The translations under genes and the position numbers were made by a program. The notes below the pieces were generated by a model. The model ran no database searches and was not told the origin of the DNA. It worked only from the letters and a program-made list of their open reading frames with translations. Of a stretch of 64,000 nucleotides of DNA, positions 4,230 through 41,995 are shown piece after piece; positions within the stretch are counted from its first letter, which is position 1, and each line of letters starts with the position of its first letter. The DNA is taken from contig CAZVGK010000010.1 of NCBI GenBank assembly GCA_964626665.1, forward strand, positions 22,850 to 86,849, in the 5' to 3' direction. Origin of the DNA: an uncultured Gemmatimonadota bacterium. Lineage in GTDB: Bacteria; SM23-81; DAOVCL01.

Positions 4230-4772
4230 ATGAAAGTTGGCCTCTTAAGCGACAGCCACGGTGAGTTGGAGAACCTGCGTCGGGCCGCCAAAGTTCTGGC
4301 CGATCAGGTGGAACTCATCGTCCACCTGGGGGACGATTGGGATGATTGCCGGGTGCTTGAGGAGATGGGTCTGAAATTCATCAGGGTGCCCGGGGTCTTC
4401 AGCAGTTACTATCAGGCCCCTCAGATCGCCAACCGCAGGATAGAGAAGTTCAACCACTGGAAGGTTCTTCTCTCCCATACCTCTACCTCCCATAAGAACG
4501 ATCTTCCTCAGGATATGAAACCAGAGGTTGTTGTGGCCAGAAGGGAGGTAGATGTTGTCCTCTATGGCCATACCCATATCCCTAAAATTGAGAAATCACA
4601 GGGGATCTTATGGGTCAACCCCGGCCATCTGAAACCGGAGGATAGGAAGGGATACTCTCCCAGCTATGCCATCTTAGATTTTGGGCCCCAAGAGGTTTGG
4701 GTTAGAATCTTTGGCCTGGAGAAGGGGGAGATCTTGGCCGAGAGTGAAATTAGGGACACTTCCCATTTTTAA
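4230..4772 (+). CDS. Metallophosphoesterase, YfcE/MJ0936 family
   Basis: 'SDSHG', 'HLGD', 'GHTH', 'NPG' motifs; RBS GGAGGTG before ATG 4230. Confidence 0.9.
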   Translation: MKVGLLSDSHGELENLRRAAKVLADQVELIVHLGDDWDDCRVLEEMGLKFIRVPGVFSSYYQAPQIANRRIEKFNHWKVLLSHTSTSHKNDLPQDMKPEVVVARREVDVVLYGHTHIPKIEKSQGILWVNPGHLKPEDRKGYSPSYAILDFGPQEVWVRIFGLEKGEILAESEIRDTSHF

Positions 4773-27069: not shown

Positions 27070-28137
27070 ATGGCCAGGGAGTTGATCAAGGGGAACGAGG
27101 CAGTGGTAAAGGGGGCCATCTTAGCCGGGTGCCGGGCCTATTTCGGTTATCCAATTACCCCGGCCAGTGAGATCGCCCATGCTGCTGCTCGGTATCTCCC
27201 CTTGGTGGGGGGGACATTTATTCAGGGAGAAAGTGAGGTGGCCTCCATTCAGATGGTCTATGGAGCAGCCTCGGCAGGCCAAAGGGCGTTGACGGCATCC
27301 TCCGGCCCGGGAATCAGCTTGAAACAGGAGGGGGTCTCCTATATGGCTGGCTCTGAGCTTCCCTGTGTGATTGTTGATGTGATGAGGGGAGGGCCCGGTT
27401 TGGGGAATATTGCCCCTGAACAGGGTGATTATCATCAAGTGGTCAAAGGCGGTGGCCATGGGAACTACAAGACAATCGTCTTGGCCCCAAACTCCGCTCA
27501 GGAGATGTGTGATCTCACTATGTTGGCCTTCGATCTTGCTGACAAATATAGAAATCCGGCTGTTGTTTTGGCAGATGGCTTTGTGGGACAGATGATGGAG
27601 CCTGTGGAGTTTCCCAAGCCAAAACCGATCAAAGGGGAGAAACCTTGGGTTGTCAATGGGACTAAAGAGATGAGCAAGAACCTGATCACCTCCATCTATC
27701 TTTCCCCTGAGGAGTTAGAGGAGCATGTAATGAAGTTGGCCCGCAAATATGCGGAGGTGGAGGAAAAGGAGCAGCGGTTTGAGGCCTACCAATTAGAGGG
27801 GGCAGAGATTGTCACCATAGGCTATGGCATAGTCTCTCGGATACTCCATACTGTTGTGGATAGGGCAAGGAAGGAAGGGATGAAGATAGGGTTACTGCGG
27901 CCGATTACCCTTTGGCCTTTTCCCAGGAAGAAGATGAAGGAACTAGCCGAGAGCGTGAAGAGTTTCCTGGTGGTGGAGATGAGCACTGGCCAAATGGTTG
28001 ACGATGTGAGGTTGGCCACCGAGGAAAGGAAGCCCGTGCACTTTTATGGAAGGAGTGGGGGAATGGTTCCCTCCGTGGATGAGATTTGGCAAAAGATTAA
28101 AGAGATCACAAATGTAACCGCAGATGAATCTGGATAG
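27070..28137 (+). CDS. vorB: 2-oxoisovalerate:ferredoxin oxidoreductase alpha-type subunit
   Basis: 'KGNEA', 'FGYPITP.SE', '[12 protein letters not shown]', 'RGGPGLGNI', 'KGGGHG'. Confidence 0.9.
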
Positions 28138-34844: not shown

Positions 34845-36224
34845 TTACTTGAGCAACGTCAGAAGCTTCTCTCCCACAGTCCAGATGTCCCCGGCCCCCA
34901 TAGTGACGACCATATCCCCCTGGCGGACAAGTTTGCTGAGGAAAAGGGGGAGGTCCTCCTTCCGCGGGACCCAGTGGACGGCGGGATGGCCATATTCCTC
35001 TGCGGCCTGGGCCACCAACTCCCCGGACACCCCGGGGATCGGTTCCTCCCGGGCCGGATAGATCTCGGTGACCACCAGCAGGTCCGAGGAACTTAGAGCC
35101 TTCCCAAAGTGGCGGCAGAAGTCCCTGGTGCGGGTGTAGAGATGGGGTTGGAAAACAGCCACTATCCTCCTCTCCCATCCCGCTCTGGCTGCCTGCAGGG
35201 TGGCTTCTATCTCCGTGGGATGGTGGGCGTAGTCGTCAACTACCATTACCCCCTGGTTCTCCCCCTTGATCTCAAACCTGCGGTGCACCCCCCGAAATCC
35301 CTGCAGGGAGGAAGCTATCTGCGGGAAGGGGATCTCCAGCTCCAGGCCCAGGGTAATGGCAGCCAAGGCGTTCTTTACATTGTGTTCCCCGGGGACCTGT
35401 AGCTTCACCTCCCCCAAGGTCTCTTCCCCCCTGAGGACCACAAAGCGGCTCTCCGTCCCCTGGAAGCGGAGGCCATCCCCGCGGATGTCCGCCCCCTTCG
35501 TCAGGCCATAGGTGATGAGTTCCCTCTCCACCTGGGGGATGATGGCCTGGAGGCTGGGTTCATCCAGGCAGAGGATCACCGAACCATAGAAGGGGACCTT
35601 GTTGGCAAATTCCACGAAGGCGGATTTCAGATCACCCAAACTGGTGTAACAGTCCATATGTTCCGCCTCTAAGGTGGTGATGATGGCAATTGTAGGGATG
35701 AGCCTGAGGAAGGAGCGGTCGAACTCGTCGGCCTCAGCCACCAGGTAATTCCCCTTGCCTAAGAGAGCGTTCGTGCCCAAGGCTATCACCCTTCCCCCTA
35801 CCACGATGGTGGGATCGAAGCCCCCGCTGGTCATCACCTCACCGATCATCGAGGTGGTCGTTGTCTTGCCATGGGTGCCAGCGATGGCAATGCCAAACTT
35901 CATTCTCATCAGCTCCCCTAACATCTCCGCCCTTCTAATCAGGGGTATCCTTAGGGAGCGGGCTGCCGCCGCCTCGGGGTTTGACTCCTTGATGGCCGAG
36001 GAAATGACGACCACATCTGCCCCCTCTACATTCTGTCCCCGATGCTCATAGTCTATCTTTGCCCCTAAACGAGAGAGCCTCTGGGTAAGGGGGGAGGTCC
36101 TTAGGTCGGAACCCGTTACCTGGTATCCCATATCAAGCAGAATCTCGGCAATTCCGCTCATCCCAATCCCCCCGATTCCCACTAAGTGAAGCCTCTTAAC
36201 CTTTCTGAATGGCCTATTTAACAT
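34845..36224 (-). CDS. murC: UDP-N-acetylmuramate-L-alanine ligase
   Basis: 'GIGGIGMSG', 'GTHGKTTT', 'EADE', 'DDYAHHPTE', 'FQPH'. Confidence 0.98.
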   Translation of the reverse strand: MLNRPFRKVKRLHLVGIGGIGMSGIAEILLDMGYQVTGSDLRTSPLTQRLSRLGAKIDYEHRGQNVEGADVVVISSAIKESNPEAAAARSLRIPLIRRAEMLGELMRMKFGIAIAGTHGKTTTTSMIGEVMTSGGFDPTIVVGGRVIALGTNALLGKGNYLVAEADEFDRSFLRLIPTIAIITTLEAEHMDCYTSLGDLKSAFVEFANKVPFYGSVILCLDEPSLQAIIPQVERELITYGLTKGADIRGDGLRFQGTESRFVVLRGEETLGEVKLQVPGEHNVKNALAAITLGLELEIPFPQIASSLQGFRGVHRRFEIKGENQGVMVVDDYAHHPTEIEATLQAARAGWERRIVAVFQPHLYTRTRDFCRHFGKALSSSDLLVVTEIYPAREEPIPGVSGELVAQAAEEYGHPAVHWVPRKEDLPLFLSKLVRQGDMVVTMGAGDIWTVGEKLLTLLK

Positions 36225-37290
36225 GGGCCAACCTTATAATGGAGGTTGTGAGGGCCTCAGCGGCTTGGGGTTGGCCGAGCCGAGCTGAGGCGGTGGCCAT
36301 CCTTTGTAACCTCTCCCCATCCCGCAGAAGGGGGATGGCCGCAGCTATGAGGGATTTGCCGTTTAGGTCAGCATCGGCTATGACCAAAGCTGCTCCCCTC
36401 TGCTGGAAGGCTTGCGCATTCAACCTCTGATGGCCCCCGGTGGCAAAAGGATAGGGGATGAGAATTGAAGGCTTTCCCAGGAGGGTGAGCTCGGCGATGG
36501 TGGAGCCACCTGCCCTGCTGATCACCAGGTCCGCAGCGGAATAGACCAGGCCCATATCCTCAAAGAATGAGGCCACCTTTACCCCTGGTTGGGCCATTTT
36601 GCTCGCCCATTGCTGATCCCCTTTGCCCGTCTGCCAGATAAGATTTATTCCTTCCTGGAGAAGGGTTTTTAGGCCGTCCCTCAGGGCCAGGTTCAGGGAG
36701 TGGGCCCCCTGACTTCCCCCCAAAAGGAGGATTACCTTTCCCTTTTCCACCAAACCCAGCATCTTGCGAGCCGTGGCCTTCTCCCATCTCCGCAACCTGC
36801 GCACCGGGTTCCCCGGCACAGTAACCAGCTTCCCCCTCAAATAGGCCTTGGATGCGGGGAAGCTCAGGCAGACCTCCACAGCAAGAGGAGCCAGCAACCT
36901 GTTGGCCAATCCAGGTAAGAGGTTCTGCTCCTGGAGGAGGATGGGGATCCCCTTGGCTTTGGCTGCCAGGACAACGGGGAGACTAACATATCCGCCAGTC
37001 CCCACCACCACCTGGGGGTGGAACCTCCGAAAGAGGAGGAAGGACTCCCACACTCCCTTCGCCACGATAAGGGGAAGGATAAAGTTGGCCAAGGAGAAAC
37101 CTCTTTTAAAGCCCGCTGAGCTAATTTCCTCCACTGCAAACCCCTTTTCCCTTAAAATCTTGGCCTCCATTCCGCCCTTTCTTCCAGCGAAGAGGATCTT
37201 CACTCCCTTCTCCCGCAGCTTCTCTGCCAGGGCCAGGGCAGGGAAGAGGTGGCCACCTGTCCCCCCGGCGGCGATTATCGTCCTCACCAC
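36214..37290 (-). CDS. murG: Lipid II GlcNAc transferase
   Basis: 'GGTGGH', 'GTGGYVS', 'GGSQGA', 'SRAGG', 'HQRLNA'. Confidence 0.98.
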   Translation of the reverse strand: MVRTIIAAGGTGGHLFPALALAEKLREKGVKILFAGRKGGMEAKILREKGFAVEEISSAGFKRGFSLANFILPLIVAKGVWESFLLFRRFHPQVVVGTGGYVSLPVVLAAKAKGIPILLQEQNLLPGLANRLLAPLAVEVCLSFPASKAYLRGKLVTVPGNPVRRLRRWEKATARKMLGLVEKGKVILLLGGSQGAHSLNLALRDGLKTLLQEGINLIWQTGKGDQQWASKMAQPGVKVASFFEDMGLVYSAADLVISRAGGSTIAELTLLGKPSILIPYPFATGGHQRLNAQAFQQRGAALVIADADLNGKSLIAAAIPLLRDGERLQRMATASARLGQPQAAEALTTSIIRLAHVK

Positions 37291-37300
37291 GCCTCCCTGA

Positions 37301-37474
37301 GTAACAGCTCACCACGGAATCTCACGGAATGACACACCTCTTTTCTCTACCGTTAGAACTCCTCTCCTGACGGCTTGAAAATAGAAATTGGAAAATTGCA
37401 ATTCCCTCTGCCATCATCTGACGGCAGATCGATGTCCGAAGGCATCTCCTGCAACCCTCCCTGGTGAACTATTG
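37301..37474. mobile_element. MITE-like element between ftsW and murG
   Basis: Left end TAACAGCTCACCAC, right end GGTGAACTATTG (inverted); the right end contains the ftsW stop. Confidence 0.65.
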
Positions 37475-38581
37475 CTCCCCCTTAAACCGGGGGAACCCTC
37501 CCCTTCCTTCCCTTTTGGAAAGTTGCAGGAGGATCCCACTCCCCAACAGGTAGAAGAGGAGGGAGGAACCGCCATAGCTGATAAAGGGAAGGGGAAGACC
37601 CGTGGTAGGCAAGCGACCACAGGCTACCCCCACATTGAGAAGGAACCCCAGGCCGATCATGGCCAACAGCCCCAGCCCCAGGAATGAACCGTACAGATCT
37701 GGGGCCTGGAGGGAAGAACGTATCCCCCGCAACAGGAAGAAGAGAAAGAGGAGGAAAATGGTCACAATCCCCAAGAAGCCCAACTCCTCCCCCAGAGAGG
37801 AGAGGATAAAATCTGTGTGGGGTTGGGGAAGGAAGAAAAGCTTCTCCCTTCCCTCTCCTATCCCCGTCCCCAAGAGTCCACCAGAGCCCAGGGAGATGAG
37901 GGATTGATGTAGCTGATAGCCCAACTTTTTTGTGTCCTCCAAGGGGTGGAGAAATGCCCAGATCCTGTCTGTTCTGTAATGGACCTTCTGGATGAAGAAG
38001 AAGAGGATGGGTAGGGAGGAGAGGCCAATGAACAGAAGATGGCGCATCCTCACCCCACCCAAGAACAGCATTATCCCGGCCAGGCAGAGGATGACAAAGG
38101 CTGTGCTGAAATCCGGTTCTAAGGCCACAAGGACAAATGTTATACTTACCACTAGGAGGGGGGGGAGCAGTCCCCGGTTGAACTTCTTTATTACCTCCCT
38201 CTTTCTCTCCAGGAAATCTGCCAGGTAGAGGATAATGGAGAACTTAGCCAACTCAGAGGGTTGAAAGGAGATAAACCCCAACCTCAGCCACCTCCCTTTT
38301 TTGAGAATTATCATTAAGGCCAAGAGGGTGAAGCTAACCAACAGAAACCAAGGGGTGGGCTTCCTGAGCCAACGGTAGTCCAGGCGCAAGGTGAACATCA
38401 GGGCGCAGAGGCCGATAAATAGCTTGAAGATGTGACGCCGGAGGAAGTAAGTGGAGTCATAACCAAACCTCTTCTGTTGAGTGAGGGGGGAACTGGAACT
38501 GTAGACGACGATGGTCCCGATGGCCAAGAGCAGGGCCAAGGAGATAACCAATCCCAGATCAACTTTCCCCTCCTTGAACAT
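37469..38581 (-). CDS. ftsW: Peptidoglycan glycosyltransferase FtsW
   Basis: 'RW....SFQPSELAK', 'LEPDF', 'LPQPHTDFI', 'PTTGLPLPFISYGGS'. Confidence 0.97.
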   Translation of the reverse strand: MFKEGKVDLGLVISLALLLAIGTIVVYSSSSPLTQQKRFGYDSTYFLRRHIFKLFIGLCALMFTLRLDYRWLRKPTPWFLLVSFTLLALMIILKKGRWLRLGFISFQPSELAKFSIILYLADFLERKREVIKKFNRGLLPPLLVVSITFVLVALEPDFSTAFVILCLAGIMLFLGGVRMRHLLFIGLSSLPILFFFIQKVHYRTDRIWAFLHPLEDTKKLGYQLHQSLISLGSGGLLGTGIGEGREKLFFLPQPHTDFILSSLGEELGFLGIVTIFLLFLFFLLRGIRSSLQAPDLYGSFLGLGLLAMIGLGFLLNVGVACGRLPTTGLPLPFISYGGSSLLFYLLGSGILLQLSKREGRGGFPRFKGEQ

Positions 38582-38600
38582 TTAGGTCTCCTTACATTAT

Positions 38601-38929
38601 TAACAGTTCACCACGGAATCTCACGGAGAAAAGCAATTATGAATTGAGAATTAAGAATGAGGTTCATGCTGATCCCCGTTTTTCTGTACTATAATTTTGC
38701 AAGCCCTCATTTTTTTTAACAAAGTTTTTCAGGCTACCTTAAGTGGATAACTTCTACCGCACTTTAGTGCGGGTTCAGGGCCTTTAGACCCCTTGGGTTT
38801 GAGTCCAGTCAACGGGCTAAAGCCCTGTCAACCCTCGGCTAAAGCCGGGTAGAAGAACACTTGACGTTAAGTAGTTTTTTTCTGTCTATGAAATCCGTGT
38901 AATCCGTGGTTATCTGTGGTGAACTATTG
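38601..38929. mobile_element. MITE-like element between murD and ftsW with a nested CTTCTAC...GTAGAAG REP-like unit
   Basis: Ends TAACAGTTCACCACGGA / TCTGTGGTGAACTATTG; inner hairpin unit at 38751-38855. Confidence 0.7.
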
Positions 38930-40297
38930 GTTTAGTCTCACATCTTGAATTTGCAGCTTTCTTACCTCTTCCTTGAATACCCTTCCCCTCTCCTCGAAGT
39001 CCGTGAACATATCGTAACTAGCACAGGCAGGGGAGAGGAGAACGGTTTCCCCTGGTTTGGCCAGTTTGTAAGCAGCCTTTACCGCCTGGGAGAGTGTAGC
39101 CACTTTGGTGATCGGGGCCAGGCCTTGCCAGCTGGTGGCCAGCTTTTCCTGGGTTTCCCCTAAAAGAATTAGACCCCTCACCCTTTCCTTGATCAGCTCT
39201 CCCAAGCTGTGGAAGTCAGAGCCTTTGTCCCTTCCCCCGGCAATAAGGATAATGGAGGAAGGGAAGCTCAGGAGCGCATAGCGGGTGGCATCAACATTGG
39301 TCCCCTTGGAGTCGTTGATGAACCTCACCCCTCCAATGGTGTCCACCACCTCCAGCCTATGCTCCAGGCCTGGAAATGAGATTAGATGGGGAACGATCTT
39401 CTCCTTTTTTAGGCCCCAACCAAGGCAGGCGGCCACTGTGGCTAAGTAGTTGGAGAGGTTGTGCGGGCCGGGAAGGGGGAGCTCCCTGAGGCTAACAACC
39501 TTCTCCTGATGGCCGGAGAGCGAACTCACCACCCAGCCATCCTTCACCCCTACCTCTGAACCAATCCCCTCCTGCCGGGAGAAGGTAATCACTCTGGGTT
39601 TTAACCCCTTGCTGAGAGGGGAGACTAAGGGGTCATCCCGGTTGAGGATGGCCAGATCATCCTCCCCTTGCTGGGCGAATATCCTTTGCTTTGCTTGGGC
39701 ATACTCCGCAAAACTTGCGTATCTGTCCAAATGATCTGGGGTGATGTTCAGGAGGATGGCCAACTGAGGGGAGAAATCCCTTACGGTATCCAATTGAAAG
39801 CTGGATATCTCCGCCACTATGATCCCCTTCTCCGAGACCCCCCTCACCACCCCGGAGAGTGGCTGCCCAATGTTCCCAGCGACCTCTGCCTCATGGCCGG
39901 AGGATCTGAGGATGTGGCCCAAAAGCGATGTGGTGGTTGACTTTCCGTTGGATCCGGTAACCGCCCAGAGGGGGGCTCTGGCGAACCACCAGGCCACCTC
40001 CACCTCAGATAGGATTTCAATGTCCCTCCTGCGCGCTTCCTGTAGTAGTGGCAGGGAGAGAGGGACACCAGGGGAGAGAACGATGAGCTCCGTCCCTTTC
40101 AGGGCCCTTTCAGTATGTCCTTCAGTCTCCAGTTCAATTCCTTGCAACCTCTCGACGCCTGGGGGGGAATTTATGTCTGAGCCAAACACCTGGGCTCCGG
40201 TCTCCTTTAGAAGCCTGGCCACAGCCTGGCCACTGCGAGAAAGCCCCACTATGGTGACCCTTTTCCCTTTAAGTCCCTTTATCCTCTGGCCCTGCAA
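38924..40297 (-). CDS. murD: UDP-N-acetylmuramoyl-L-alanine-D-glutamate ligase
   Basis: 'VTGSNGKSTT', 'SSFQL', 'DHLDRY', 'NDSKGTN', 'LLSPACAS'; TTG start after AAGGAG. Confidence 0.98.
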   Translation of the reverse strand: MQGQRIKGLKGKRVTIVGLSRSGQAVARLLKETGAQVFGSDINSPPGVERLQGIELETEGHTERALKGTELIVLSPGVPLSLPLLQEARRRDIEILSEVEVAWWFARAPLWAVTGSNGKSTTTSLLGHILRSSGHEAEVAGNIGQPLSGVVRGVSEKGIIVAEISSFQLDTVRDFSPQLAILLNITPDHLDRYASFAEYAQAKQRIFAQQGEDDLAILNRDDPLVSPLSKGLKPRVITFSRQEGIGSEVGVKDGWVVSSLSGHQEKVVSLRELPLPGPHNLSNYLATVAACLGWGLKKEKIVPHLISFPGLEHRLEVVDTIGGVRFINDSKGTNVDATRYALLSFPSSIILIAGGRDKGSDFHSLGELIKERVRGLILLGETQEKLATSWQGLAPITKVATLSQAVKAAYKLAKPGETVLLSPACASYDMFTDFEERGRVFKEEVRKLQIQDVRLNQ

Positions 40298-40366
40298 CTT
40301 GCTCCTTGTGCTGGCAGGTTCCCTGCCCTAAAGGTGAATATGGAAATTCGGATTCTCCCACTGTCC

Positions 40367-41995
40367 CTATTCCTTCCGGATGATCACATCTTTTCCTTTG
40401 AGGATCAATGGTTTGCCGATTGTTAGTGTGGGAGCAGAGAAGGTGTTGTCAGACCCAGCCTTGAATATCAGTGTCGCATTATCAGGAACCTCGGCGATTG
40501 CCTCTTCAATATCTTCATACGGATCATCCGGACTGCCATCGCCGGGATTGGAGTCGCCGACAAACTTCACCACATTTAACGGAGCTATACGGGTGACATG
40601 GTGCTGTTTTAGGTTAAAAAATTCTGGGACATTGTCACAGGAGTACCAGCCATCCCAAAATCCGCCCCACCCTAAGTTCATCTTGAACTGCCTGTCCGGA
40701 TCGGTTGTCTTATTATAACCGAATACAACCCAGGCGTGTCCTCCCCCACCCAAGGTGTCCGCCCGATAACCAGAGAACTCCATAGGCCGCAGCCATTGAA
40801 TTTCCTCGGTCATCGTATTTATGTTCCTTGTTCCATAGGTGGCATCGTAGTCGTACCTGAAGTGATCCTCGAGAGCATCGTCGACATCTGATGGATATGC
40901 CCCAGAACTCTTAATCCCATAATTCATTCCAACGGCAATACCGGCGTGATAGCACAGCTTGGCCACCTCGGCATCTCCATTATCAGGTGGATCTGAATGC
41001 GTATCCTCTATGATACTCCAGTTGTAGTTTGTGGCCCCAAAATTGGCATTACAGTTAGTTGAAGCTTGCGTGAGCCTGTTCCAGAGGGTTTCGAGGGCAT
41101 TTAAATAATCCGCATCGTCACTTATATTTTGTGCCCCCCCATAGAGGGAATTATCCCAGTAGCCGTTCATCCGCAGTTTGTCCCCACCCGCCGCGGTCCA
41201 TTCGAGCCGTCCCCCGCCGGCCCAATTTGGTGGAATTTTTGGGTCCTTTGCCAGCGGTTCCTCATCCCAGTTGTTTCTCCATCGGTAATAATAGACCGTG
41301 CCACCAGTGCTTTGTCCAGTGTTCGGCCATTTCCAGTAGTACATTATCTGGGACATAGCCGTGGCGACGCAGCCGACCACGCAGTGTTCATCGACTCCAG
41401 GGGTAAGTTCGGGGCATTGGTCATTGTATGGCGAGCCCTGGGACCATTGGGAGGTTAGATCGAGCTCCATCATTATAGGTTCAGCCTTGGCCTTGTTTTC
41501 CTCTATTCTTAGTGGAATGCGACCGGCAATAAGATCCTGCCAGGATGAGGCCCTCTCAGCCAAAGCTTTTTGATACTGGAGCAGCTTAGGGTCCCCTCCC
41601 ATCAATCCCTCACGCAGATGTTTTAGCCTGGTCTCGATCTCCCAGAGGATATATTGATAGTCTGGATTCTGAGGGTCATATCTCCCGTAGGGACTGTAGA
41701 AGTAGACAGGGAGAACCAGATTATCAGGGCCACAAAGACAGAAACCACCACCGGAGAGATGAGCGATGTAAGCAATGGTTTCTCCTTTAACTTTATGGGG
41801 TTCCATCCTCTCGATGACGGCATCAGGTCTCGCATCAGCAGTGACATAACGCACCCAGGTTTGGACGGCAGCTCGGACTTCTTCTGGCGACAACTGTTTT
41901 GCCTGGAGTAACCCAGGTAATAAGATCAAGGAGGCAAGCAGCAGAGATACCAAAGGCCAGGCCCTCTTGCAGGCTTTGTCTTTAATCGGCTTCAT
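40367..41995 (-). CDS. Secreted C10 (streptopain-like) cysteine peptidase with pro-domain
   Basis: 'WSQGSPYN..CP', 'VGCVATAMSQIMYYWKWP', 'GHAWVVFGY', 'MNLGWGG'. Confidence 0.93.
   Translation of the reverse strand: MKPIKDKACKRAWPLVSLLLASLILLPGLLQAKQLSPEEVRAAVQTWVRYVTADARPDAVIERMEPHKVKGETIAYIAHLSGGGFCLCGPDNLVLPVYFYSPYGRYDPQNPDYQYILWEIETRLKHLREGLMGGDPKLLQYQKALAERASSWQDLIAGRIPLRIEENKAKAEPIMMELDLTSQWSQGSPYNDQCPELTPGVDEHCVVGCVATAMSQIMYYWKWPNTGQSTGGTVYYYRWRNNWDEEPLAKDPKIPPNWAGGGRLEWTAAGGDKLRMNGYWDNSLYGGAQNISDDADYLNALETLWNRLTQASTNCNANFGATNYNWSIIEDTHSDPPDNGDAEVAKLCYHAGIAVGMNYGIKSSGAYPSDVDDALEDHFRYDYDATYGTRNINTMTEEIQWLRPMEFSGYRADTLGGGGHAWVVFGYNKTTDPDRQFKMNLGWGGFWDGWYSCDNVPEFFNLKQHHVTRIAPLNVVKFVGDSNPGDGSPDDPYEDIEEAIAEVPDNATLIFKAGSDNTFSAPTLTIGKPLILKGKDVIIRKE

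Follow-up and report, generated by a model that had tools for sequence, protein, structure and literature searches.

Elements at two junctions of a cell-wall gene cluster

The stretch of DNA analysed here, called the window (64,000 nt; G000:C10:22850-86849), belongs to the genome of an uncultured sediment bacterium, G000, assembled to 3,173,157 bp in 63 contigs with 48.9% G+C. It contains murD, ftsW and murG of the cell-wall (dcw) cluster, all on the minus strand (Table 1). The spacers between these genes are long, 342 nt for murD-ftsW and 178 nt for ftsW-murG, and each is filled by one copy of a MITE (miniature inverted-repeat transposable element): element B lies between murD and ftsW, and element A between ftsW and murG. 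The elements overlap the 3' ends of the upstream genes and reach almost to the ribosome-binding site (RBS) of the downstream genes.

Each element has AAYAGTTCACCAC at both of its ends, termed L and R, in inverted orientation, and CACGGA-type repeats come after it. Both ftsW and murD now stop at the TAG of the R end (..AATAGTTCACC). The murD gene ends in ...AGA CTA AAC CAA TAG, followed by TTCACCACAG (TTCACCACAGATAACCACGG in a longer reading), and its last codon, CAA, and its stop (38924-38929) are inside element B. Likewise, ftsW ends in ...GGG GAG CAA TAG, followed by TTCACCAGG, with the stop (37469-37471) and the last codon, CAA (37472-37474), inside element A. The opposite ends, which read TTAACAGTTCACCACGGAATCTCACGGA from 38600 on and GTAACAGCTCACCACGGAATCTCACGGA from 37301 on, leave a gap of 6 nt to the RBS of ftsW and of 3 nt to that of murG.

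Table 1. Genes, elements and signals at the murD-ftsW and ftsW-murG junctions (window positions; RBS, ribosome-binding site).
Feature	Position	Strand	Description
murD	38924-40297	-	457 aa; TIGR01087, 437 bits, profile end at residue 446 of 457
ftsW	37469-38581	-	370 aa; TIGR02614, 353 bits
murG	36214-37290	-	358 aa; TIGR01133, 313 bits
Element B	38600-38930		331-bp composite MITE copy at the murD-ftsW junction, inverted GTAAY-type ends
R end of element B	38894-38930	-	CCAATAGTTCACCACAGATAACCACGGATTACACGGA; nhmmer R profile E 1.3e-7; murD stop 38924-38926 inside
L end of element B	38600-38628	+	TTAACAGTTCACCACGGAATCTCACGGAG; E 1.5e-9
Nested repeat in element B	38683-38900 (right limit approximate)		unrelated to the element, hairpin-rich, REP-like
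Element A	37301-37475		175-bp MITE copy at the ftsW-murG junction; good L end, degenerate R end
R end of element A	37461-37475	-	about 15 nt left (GCAATAGTTCACCAG); R profile E 1.6 only; holds the ftsW stop
L end of element A	37301-37329	+	GTAACAGCTCACCACGGAATCTCACGGAA; E 1.2e-9
ftsW RBS (AAGGAG)	38588-38593	-	start ATG 38579-38581; preceding TAA 38582-38584 is the putative original murD stop as reconstructed
murG RBS (GGGAGG)	37292-37297	-	GTG start 37288-37290; overlapping TGA is the putative original ftsW stop as reconstructed

The end motif AAYAGYTCACCAC, with at most one mismatch, occurs seven times in the window, a count reached by none of 100 shuffles (mean 0.20, maximum 2), and has 77 such matches genome-wide. 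When compared with the genome by BLAST, both elements prove to be mosaics. The interior of element A is made of other small repeat modules. The nested repeat of element B consists of small hairpins with TTCTAC...GTAGAA feet and CTTTAG/CTAAAG loops; it is far more abundant than the MITE family, and BLAST places parts of it (query positions 102-328) at well over 100 further sites of the genome. No open reading frame (ORF) of at least 80 aa lies wholly inside element A or B.

Element A is not an assembly artefact, since long contigs of two other public sequencing runs bridge it, spanning 36900-38630 without difference. Contigs from the runs break within element B. Among the contigs of four DNA runs no joint was found that excises element A or B exactly, and the many joints that were found stem from other repeat copies. 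No intrinsic-terminator-like site was found on the gene strand inside either element. The promoter and terminator scan returned two promoter-like and four terminator-like sites, not above the number in shuffles; a promoter-like site over the L end of element B (38624-38596, minus strand, 9/12) was given no weight.

The junctions in related genomes

The junctions were compared across the seven genomes that GTDB places in the phylum. G001 and G002 are of the same genus as G000, with identities to the G000 proteins of 78% (MurD) and 84% (FtsW) in G001, and of 75% and 79% in G002. G003-G006 belong to another family, and their MurD is about 50% identical to that of G000. In these four genomes the murD-ftsW spacer is 0-12 nt (TGA-ATG in G004), and ftsW and murG overlap by 11 nt, with the murG RBS inside ftsW.

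Within the genus, the murD-ftsW junction takes three forms. G001 has no element there: murD ends in ...GAA GTC TAA, and the ATG of ftsW follows directly. In G002 the upstream DNA is as in G000, and after it come 15 nt from the beginning of the R end (AATAGTTCACCACAG), 16 nt and the ATG. The murD stop of G002 is a TAA located 5 nt ahead of the element (GAC TAA ACC AAT AG). The gene stops there because of a 1-nt indel, the same TAA being out of frame in G000. The three species have three different MurD ends. The G002 remnant (G002:C71, about 2866-2896) is a solo 15-nt R end from which the remainder of the element is gone. Taken together with the R end of about 15 nt in element A, it suggests that interiors are lost repeatedly and that the outermost bases, those overlapping the gene end, are spared.

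At the ftsW-murG junction G001 has an element of the same family, about 330 bp long, at the same position (GAG TAA TATTTCATCGCGGA ... CAGTGAACTGTTCC), and G002 has a spacer of about 150 nt that starts with a degenerate end (GAG TAG TGCTTCATTGGGAAC). The 3' ends of ftsW align without gaps as GAG TAA in G001, GAG TAG in G002 and GAG CAA TAG in G000, in bases derived from the element end. The stop is formed by bases 2-4 of the end in G001 and G002. In G000 a T-to-C change turned that triplet into CAA, and the gene now closes at TAG, which is the following in-frame triplet of the end.

The junctions before insertion were reconstructed by removing each element together with one 8-bp duplicate (see below). 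At murD-ftsW this yields ...GTG AGA CTA AAG GAG ACC TAA immediately followed by ATG, that is, an in-frame TAA abutting the start codon, as in G001. At ftsW-murG it yields ...GGG GAG GCG TGG TGA in G000 and ...AGG GAG GAG GGG TGA in G001, and in both genomes the in-frame TGA overlaps the GTG of murG. That the elements displaced the original stops of murD and ftsW is well supported, although the reconstruction is not proven.

A first-pass annotation of the window, made from its letters and ORFs, had assigned the CAA TAG of both genes to the inverted end of an element and had placed the opposite end just before the next RBS; the R and L ends of elements A and B bear out both statements. It had also called for the C-termini to be compared with those of relatives, since identical C-terminal DNA in a relative without the element would speak against it. 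G001, without the murD-ftsW element, has different C-terminal DNA.

The repeat family and its target duplications

Profiles of the two ends, L (GTAACAGTTCACCACGGAATCTCACGGAA) and R (nnAATAGTTCACCAC[G/T]GATAACCACGGACT), matched 304 merged sites in the 3.17-Mb genome, of which 149 had E ≤ 0.01. The terminal bases are aligned in 76 of the 149, and these 47 L and 29 R ends are referred to as well-defined; the R end of element A was left out of them as too decayed. Facing ends form 33 pairs at 93-399 bp. The family has the usual features of MITEs: terminal inverted repeats (GTAAYAGTTCACCAC at both ends, inverted), and short, non-coding copies that are many and dispersed. An autonomous partner with matching ends was not found in the genome, and metagenome-assembled genomes (MAGs) often lack copies of insertion sequences. 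The termini read 5'-GTAAY AGTTCACCAC, and CACGGA-type subterminal repeats follow.

Target duplications were sought at ten good end pairs by taking the best of 16 small offsets. Two pairs match at 8/8 positions, two at 7/8 and two at 6/8, and the mean is 5.9 of 8, versus 4.30 (sd 0.30, maximum 5.29) in 500 re-pairings of the flanks. Both 8/8 pairs, and three of the other eight, have the duplication two bases beyond AAYAG. Seven distinct copies on metagenome contigs, compared at this one offset, score 8, 8, 6, 6, 3, 2 and 1. These scores, in genome and metagenome copies alike, establish that the true ends of the family are GTAAC and GTAAT (sometimes ACAAT), with 8-bp target duplications. The duplicated 8-mers (CTCCTTTC, CCCTGATC, TTTTTTTC, CTCAATTA, CAAAAAGA and TCATCTRA, among others) have no common motif. 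The 8-bp duplications and the variable bases beside the R end speak against a TA-targeting MITE of the IS630/Tc1-mariner type. At one further copy (G000:C19:13376-13502) the 8-bp duplication (TYAGATGA on the gene strand) apparently split an ATGA start/stop overlap, the upstream duplicate giving the TGA of one gene and the downstream duplicate the ATG of the next.

The family is not confined to G000. The exact 21-mer of the L end turns up on 16 MAG contigs, whose labels are Zixiibacteriota (10), Latescibacterota (5) and KSB1 (1). In the phylum set, the exact 15-mer occurs seven times in G000, 11 times in G001 and in none of the other five genomes.

GTAA termini and 8-bp direct repeats are marks of the IS66 family of insertion sequences. 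ISDge4, of the ISBst12 group of that family, has the ends GTAACTGCTCAGCA / GTGACTACTCAGCA and an 8-bp direct repeat (PMC12898284). Its end is identical to GTAACAGTTCACCA at 11 of 14 bases, both start with GTAAC, and both ISDge4 and the G000 family have an 8-bp target duplication. No counterpart of the subterminal CACGGA repeats is known from this comparison with ISDge4. The GTAA ends and the duplication length expected of IS66/ISBst12 elements are present; a bracketed DDE_Tnp_IS66 transposase was not found, and no transposase-like gene lies between paired ends at distances of 700-5000 bp, as judged by ORF lengths only. We infer that the family derives from an insertion sequence of the IS66/ISBst12 type. 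Membership remains unproven because neither a PF03050 transposase nor a full-length copy was found.

Probable re-closure of interrupted reading frames

We consider it probable, at about 70%, that both spacers hold old non-autonomous MITE copies, and that the target duplication and the stop of the R end re-closed the interrupted genes, with no targeting of stop codons. The ancestral dcw genes would have abutted or overlapped, the TAA of murD touching the ATG of ftsW and the TGA of ftsW overlapping the GTG of murG. Because of this arrangement an insert had to hit the last codons of the upstream gene. The inserts would have landed in the last three to four codons, which are at the same time the RBS region of the downstream gene. 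The 8-bp duplication copies this shared segment, and would have left one copy on each side, with the downstream gene keeping its RBS and start. The upstream frame would have run into the element and been closed by whichever stop of the R end came first in that frame; the R-end consensus, G-TAA-TAG, has two stops in one frame. MurD is predicted to have lost about three residues and gained two, and FtsW to have lost two to three and gained none or one, after which the tails of both proteins would drift. Purifying selection, and not the choice of site, probably makes the surviving copies hug stops and RBSs, and transcription presumably reads through the elements.

Several observations weigh against this account. 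The duplications at elements A and B have decayed, each scoring 3/8 at the standard offset (partly by eye), and as a result the reconstruction leans on the rule derived from the family and on the in-frame outcome, which has a 1-in-3 chance of arising at each junction. Three genomes cannot tell loss of the murD-ftsW element in G001 from its original absence. The link to IS66 consists of end sequence and duplication length only; PF03050 has matches in 0 of 7 genomes of the phylum, with control genomes giving matches, and no full-length copy is present among 22 metagenome loci (ORFs were listed for six of them, without a Pfam search). The census given below uses a crude longest-ORF gene set, which leaves start codons especially uncertain. 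Finally, 12 of the 29 R ends have a stop in each of the three frames within 45 nt, compared with a mean of 5.8 and a maximum of 12 in shuffles.

The last point has a bearing on how the R end itself is viewed. Given this excess of stops over shuffles, the end sequence may have been under some selection; the count rests on related copies, which are not independent. The L ends are not stop-rich: such closure within 45 nt is seen in 6 of 47, and the shuffles average 10.4. It is conceivable, but unlikely, that the R end, with its G-TAA-TAG and its other-frame stops within about 30 nt, forms together with the 8-bp duplication an adaptation that closes any interrupted frame. Were that so, the family could colonise the overlapping, translationally coupled junctions of essential operons, and an end-derived stop could become permanent, as that of ftsW across the genus.

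The elements might instead be kept as RNA structures in the operon transcript, serving as processing or stability sites in the manner of Correia and ERIC repeats, with a functional placement of stop and RBS. Folded end to end, the RNAs of elements A and B reach -74.6 and -101.5 kcal/mol (z -5.06 and -5.11), far better than shuffles, none of which was as good. The stop lies in the closing helix with the next RBS just outside it, and an element is retained at ftsW-murG in all three species of the genus. Any inverted-repeat element folds in this way, however, and the resemblance between species is confined to the ends, the interiors being unrelated, with lengths of 175, about 330 and about 150 nt. 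At murD-ftsW, G001 does without an element and G002 retains just 15 nt of one. A search of Rfam over both strands of 36800-39400 gave no family match, the only hit being a sub-threshold FsrA (18.8 bits versus a cut-off of 80, E 0.9). A role of this kind is improbable.

Distribution of the ends around gene stops

The first-pass annotation had proposed that insertion targets stop-codon regions and rebuilds the stop, which is why essential operons would tolerate it. An element that picked such regions, as a TA-targeting element of the IS630/mariner type could, would be expected to restore TAA or TAG. There are observations that fit. The same R-end TAG serves both dcw copies; of the 17 genes that end towards an R end, ftsW included, 3 stop in the first 7 bases of the element, where about 0.6 would be expected from an even spread over +/-30 nt; and TAG, TAA or TGA stands at the offset of that TAG in 17 of the 29 R ends.

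The surroundings of all 76 well-defined ends were examined against 3223 longest-ORF calls, which cover 87.6% of the genome. Of the 47 L ends, 30 face a gene start, 14 a gene stop and 3 nothing within range; the figures for the 29 R ends are 12, 16 and 1, so that 42 of the 76 ends face a start, against what targeting of stops would predict. Counted from the first A of AAYAG, the 16 stops facing R ends lie at -336, -122, -113, -98, -60, -23, -17, -12, -6, -6, -6, -1, +2, +13, +16 and +63, and the 14 facing L ends at -74, -49, -45, -34, -28, -27, -18, -13 (four times), -6, +37 and +115. The TAG at +2 is used by one of the 16 genes reading into an R end, murD (2 of 17 with ftsW), and the TAA of the L end by none of 14. 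Nine of the 16 genes facing an R end have a stop of their own 12 to 336 nt upstream. The stop lies inside the element for 7 of the 30 genes whose frame enters a well-defined end (R -1, +2, +13, +16, +63; L +37, +115), and some of the tails are common to several genes (e.g., ..IIHH and stop).

Neither the target duplications, which are 8 bp, not TA, and have no common motif, nor the choice of junction points to stops: 26 of the 33 paired elements are found between genes of the same strand, versus 80.7% of all junctions, which is no preference. A bias in orientation was also considered and dropped, since single L ends face starts 30:14 but paired elements between same-strand genes have R upstream in 14 cases and L in 8, which is not significant.

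The cover of repeated DNA in general was also profiled around stops. It was defined as 15-mers present at least four times, which make up 4.8% of G000; 12-mers (at least six copies) proved unsuitable, flagging 25% of the genome. Of the 2402 longer genes, those covered by repeats number 28-39 at positions -150 to -30 and 80 at the stop itself; the number reaches about 250 by +30 and 260-298 farther on. Between about -30 and +30 the cover climbs smoothly, without a spike where the stop lies, and about 80 genes end inside repeated DNA versus about 28 expected from the cover deep in genes. At least 30 nt of repeated DNA is present at 545 of 2151 same-strand junctions (25%), at 38% of convergent and at 39% of divergent ones. 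Same-strand junctions free of repeats have a median spacer of 10 nt, with 926 of 1606 at 20 nt or less and 615 overlapping or abutting (spacer ≤ 0), and any surviving insert must therefore touch a stop or an RBS. The closeness of the elements to stops and RBSs is what compaction and selection lead one to expect, and the duplications, the end census and the repeat cover are free of any sign of stop targeting. We thus retain the rebuilding of stops, on the strength of the reconstruction, and consider their targeting quite unlikely.

Other repeats at gene ends

The same annotation had listed further repeat-derived C-termini in the window. Repeats are indeed found at the stops of the phosphoesterase gene, of vorB and of a gene for 542 aa, but they are different from the MITE. 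The phosphoesterase tail (4749-4772) and the stop of the 542-aa gene (40367-41995) lie within copies of AATAGGGACACTTCC, and a third module, GCAAAGCCGC (GCGCGGCAAAGCCGCAACC-type), adjoins the vorB stop (28114-28137); it has 73 copies with at most two mismatches. In the form AATAGGGACACTTCC(C/T)ATTTT the former repeat has 65 copies (at most one mismatch), two of them at window positions 4749-4772 and 40357-40371. A same-strand gene stop is inside or abuts 8 of the 65, including those of the phosphoesterase-like gene and of the 542-aa gene near murD, and several of the associated genes use the TAG of the repeat's AATAG. The GCGCGGCAAAGCCGCAACC-type module is also the interior of some GTAAY-ended elements, among them the G001 element at ftsW-murG.

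Repeats of another kind accompany genes for the 23S rRNA intervening-sequence protein (PF05635), which has 16 matches in G000 (on C2, C4, C5, C7, C11, C13, C3, C59 and C60); most of the genes are bracketed by inverted short repeats specific to the cassette, such as GACTCAA, GGTAATCGGTGATCGG, AGCATAAG and AATTGCAAATTG. That the CACGG-armed repeats are stripped cassettes of this sort, a four-helix-bundle gene of the 23S-rRNA-intervening-sequence type having once stood between their inverted short-repeat arrays, is suggested by the number of such flanked genes and by the arms at C5:59103-59420 (AATTAAGAATTGAGAATG...), which resemble the module after the L end in many copies, including element B, but is very unlikely, given that 0 of 15 PF05635 flanks (260 nt on each side) has the GTAAYAGTTCACCAC end or CACGGA arrays, that clean 8-bp duplications and GTAA termini are marks of DDE transposition, and that the likeness is limited to an inner module in a genome whose repeats are mosaics.

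Comparison with known systems

The probable insertion of old MITE copies at abutting or overlapping genes, with re-closure of the cut frame by the element end, makes these junctions a clean and reconstructable case of a very compact genome absorbing mobile DNA inside an essential operon. It has a practical side as well, in that gene callers and alignments will show lineage-specific C-termini that are transposon ends. Similar effects have been described in other bacteria.

In Coxiella burnetii, QMITE1 and QMITE2 share 1-50 bp with the 3' ends of functional genes. Every functional gene affected carries the insertion at that end, and the length of the protein is barely altered (PMC5896051). In enhC, an indel between strains decides whether the gene stops before the QMITE or acquires a tail read from it (PMC5896051), as an indel does for murD in G002 and G000. 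The QMITEs belong to another family with other ends and another host. The G000 case also differs in that it concerns overlapping operon genes, in that the original stops can be reconstructed, and in that an end-derived stop of ftsW is kept in three species.

MITEAba12 of Acinetobacter has a consensus with stops in all six frames; neighbouring coding sequences fuse with the element, and the stop of one gene lies 31 bases into it (PMC6382973). It is derived from ISAba12, makes 9-bp duplications and has its parent in the cell, whereas the G000 family makes 8-bp duplications and no parent was found. The gene fused to MITEAba12 is a truncated pseudogene (PMC6382973), in contrast to murD and ftsW, which are essential genes with trimmed tails.

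Repeats that lengthen genes at the 3' end are listed in a review, as is the operon-tolerated MITE Chunjie (PMC3184786). As summarised there, Chunjie of Geobacter uraniireducens (Chen et al. 2008) is of similar size and has a stable RNA fold. It has 21-bp ends and 9-bp duplications (PMC3184786), compared with the GTAAY ends and 8-bp duplications of the G000 family.

The rewriting of gene 3' ends by MITEs is thus already in print for QMITE and MITEAba12, as a known side effect and not as a stop-seeking mechanism. What is new is the family with its host lineage, the reconstruction for essential genes that overlap, and an end-derived stop that is conserved throughout a genus.

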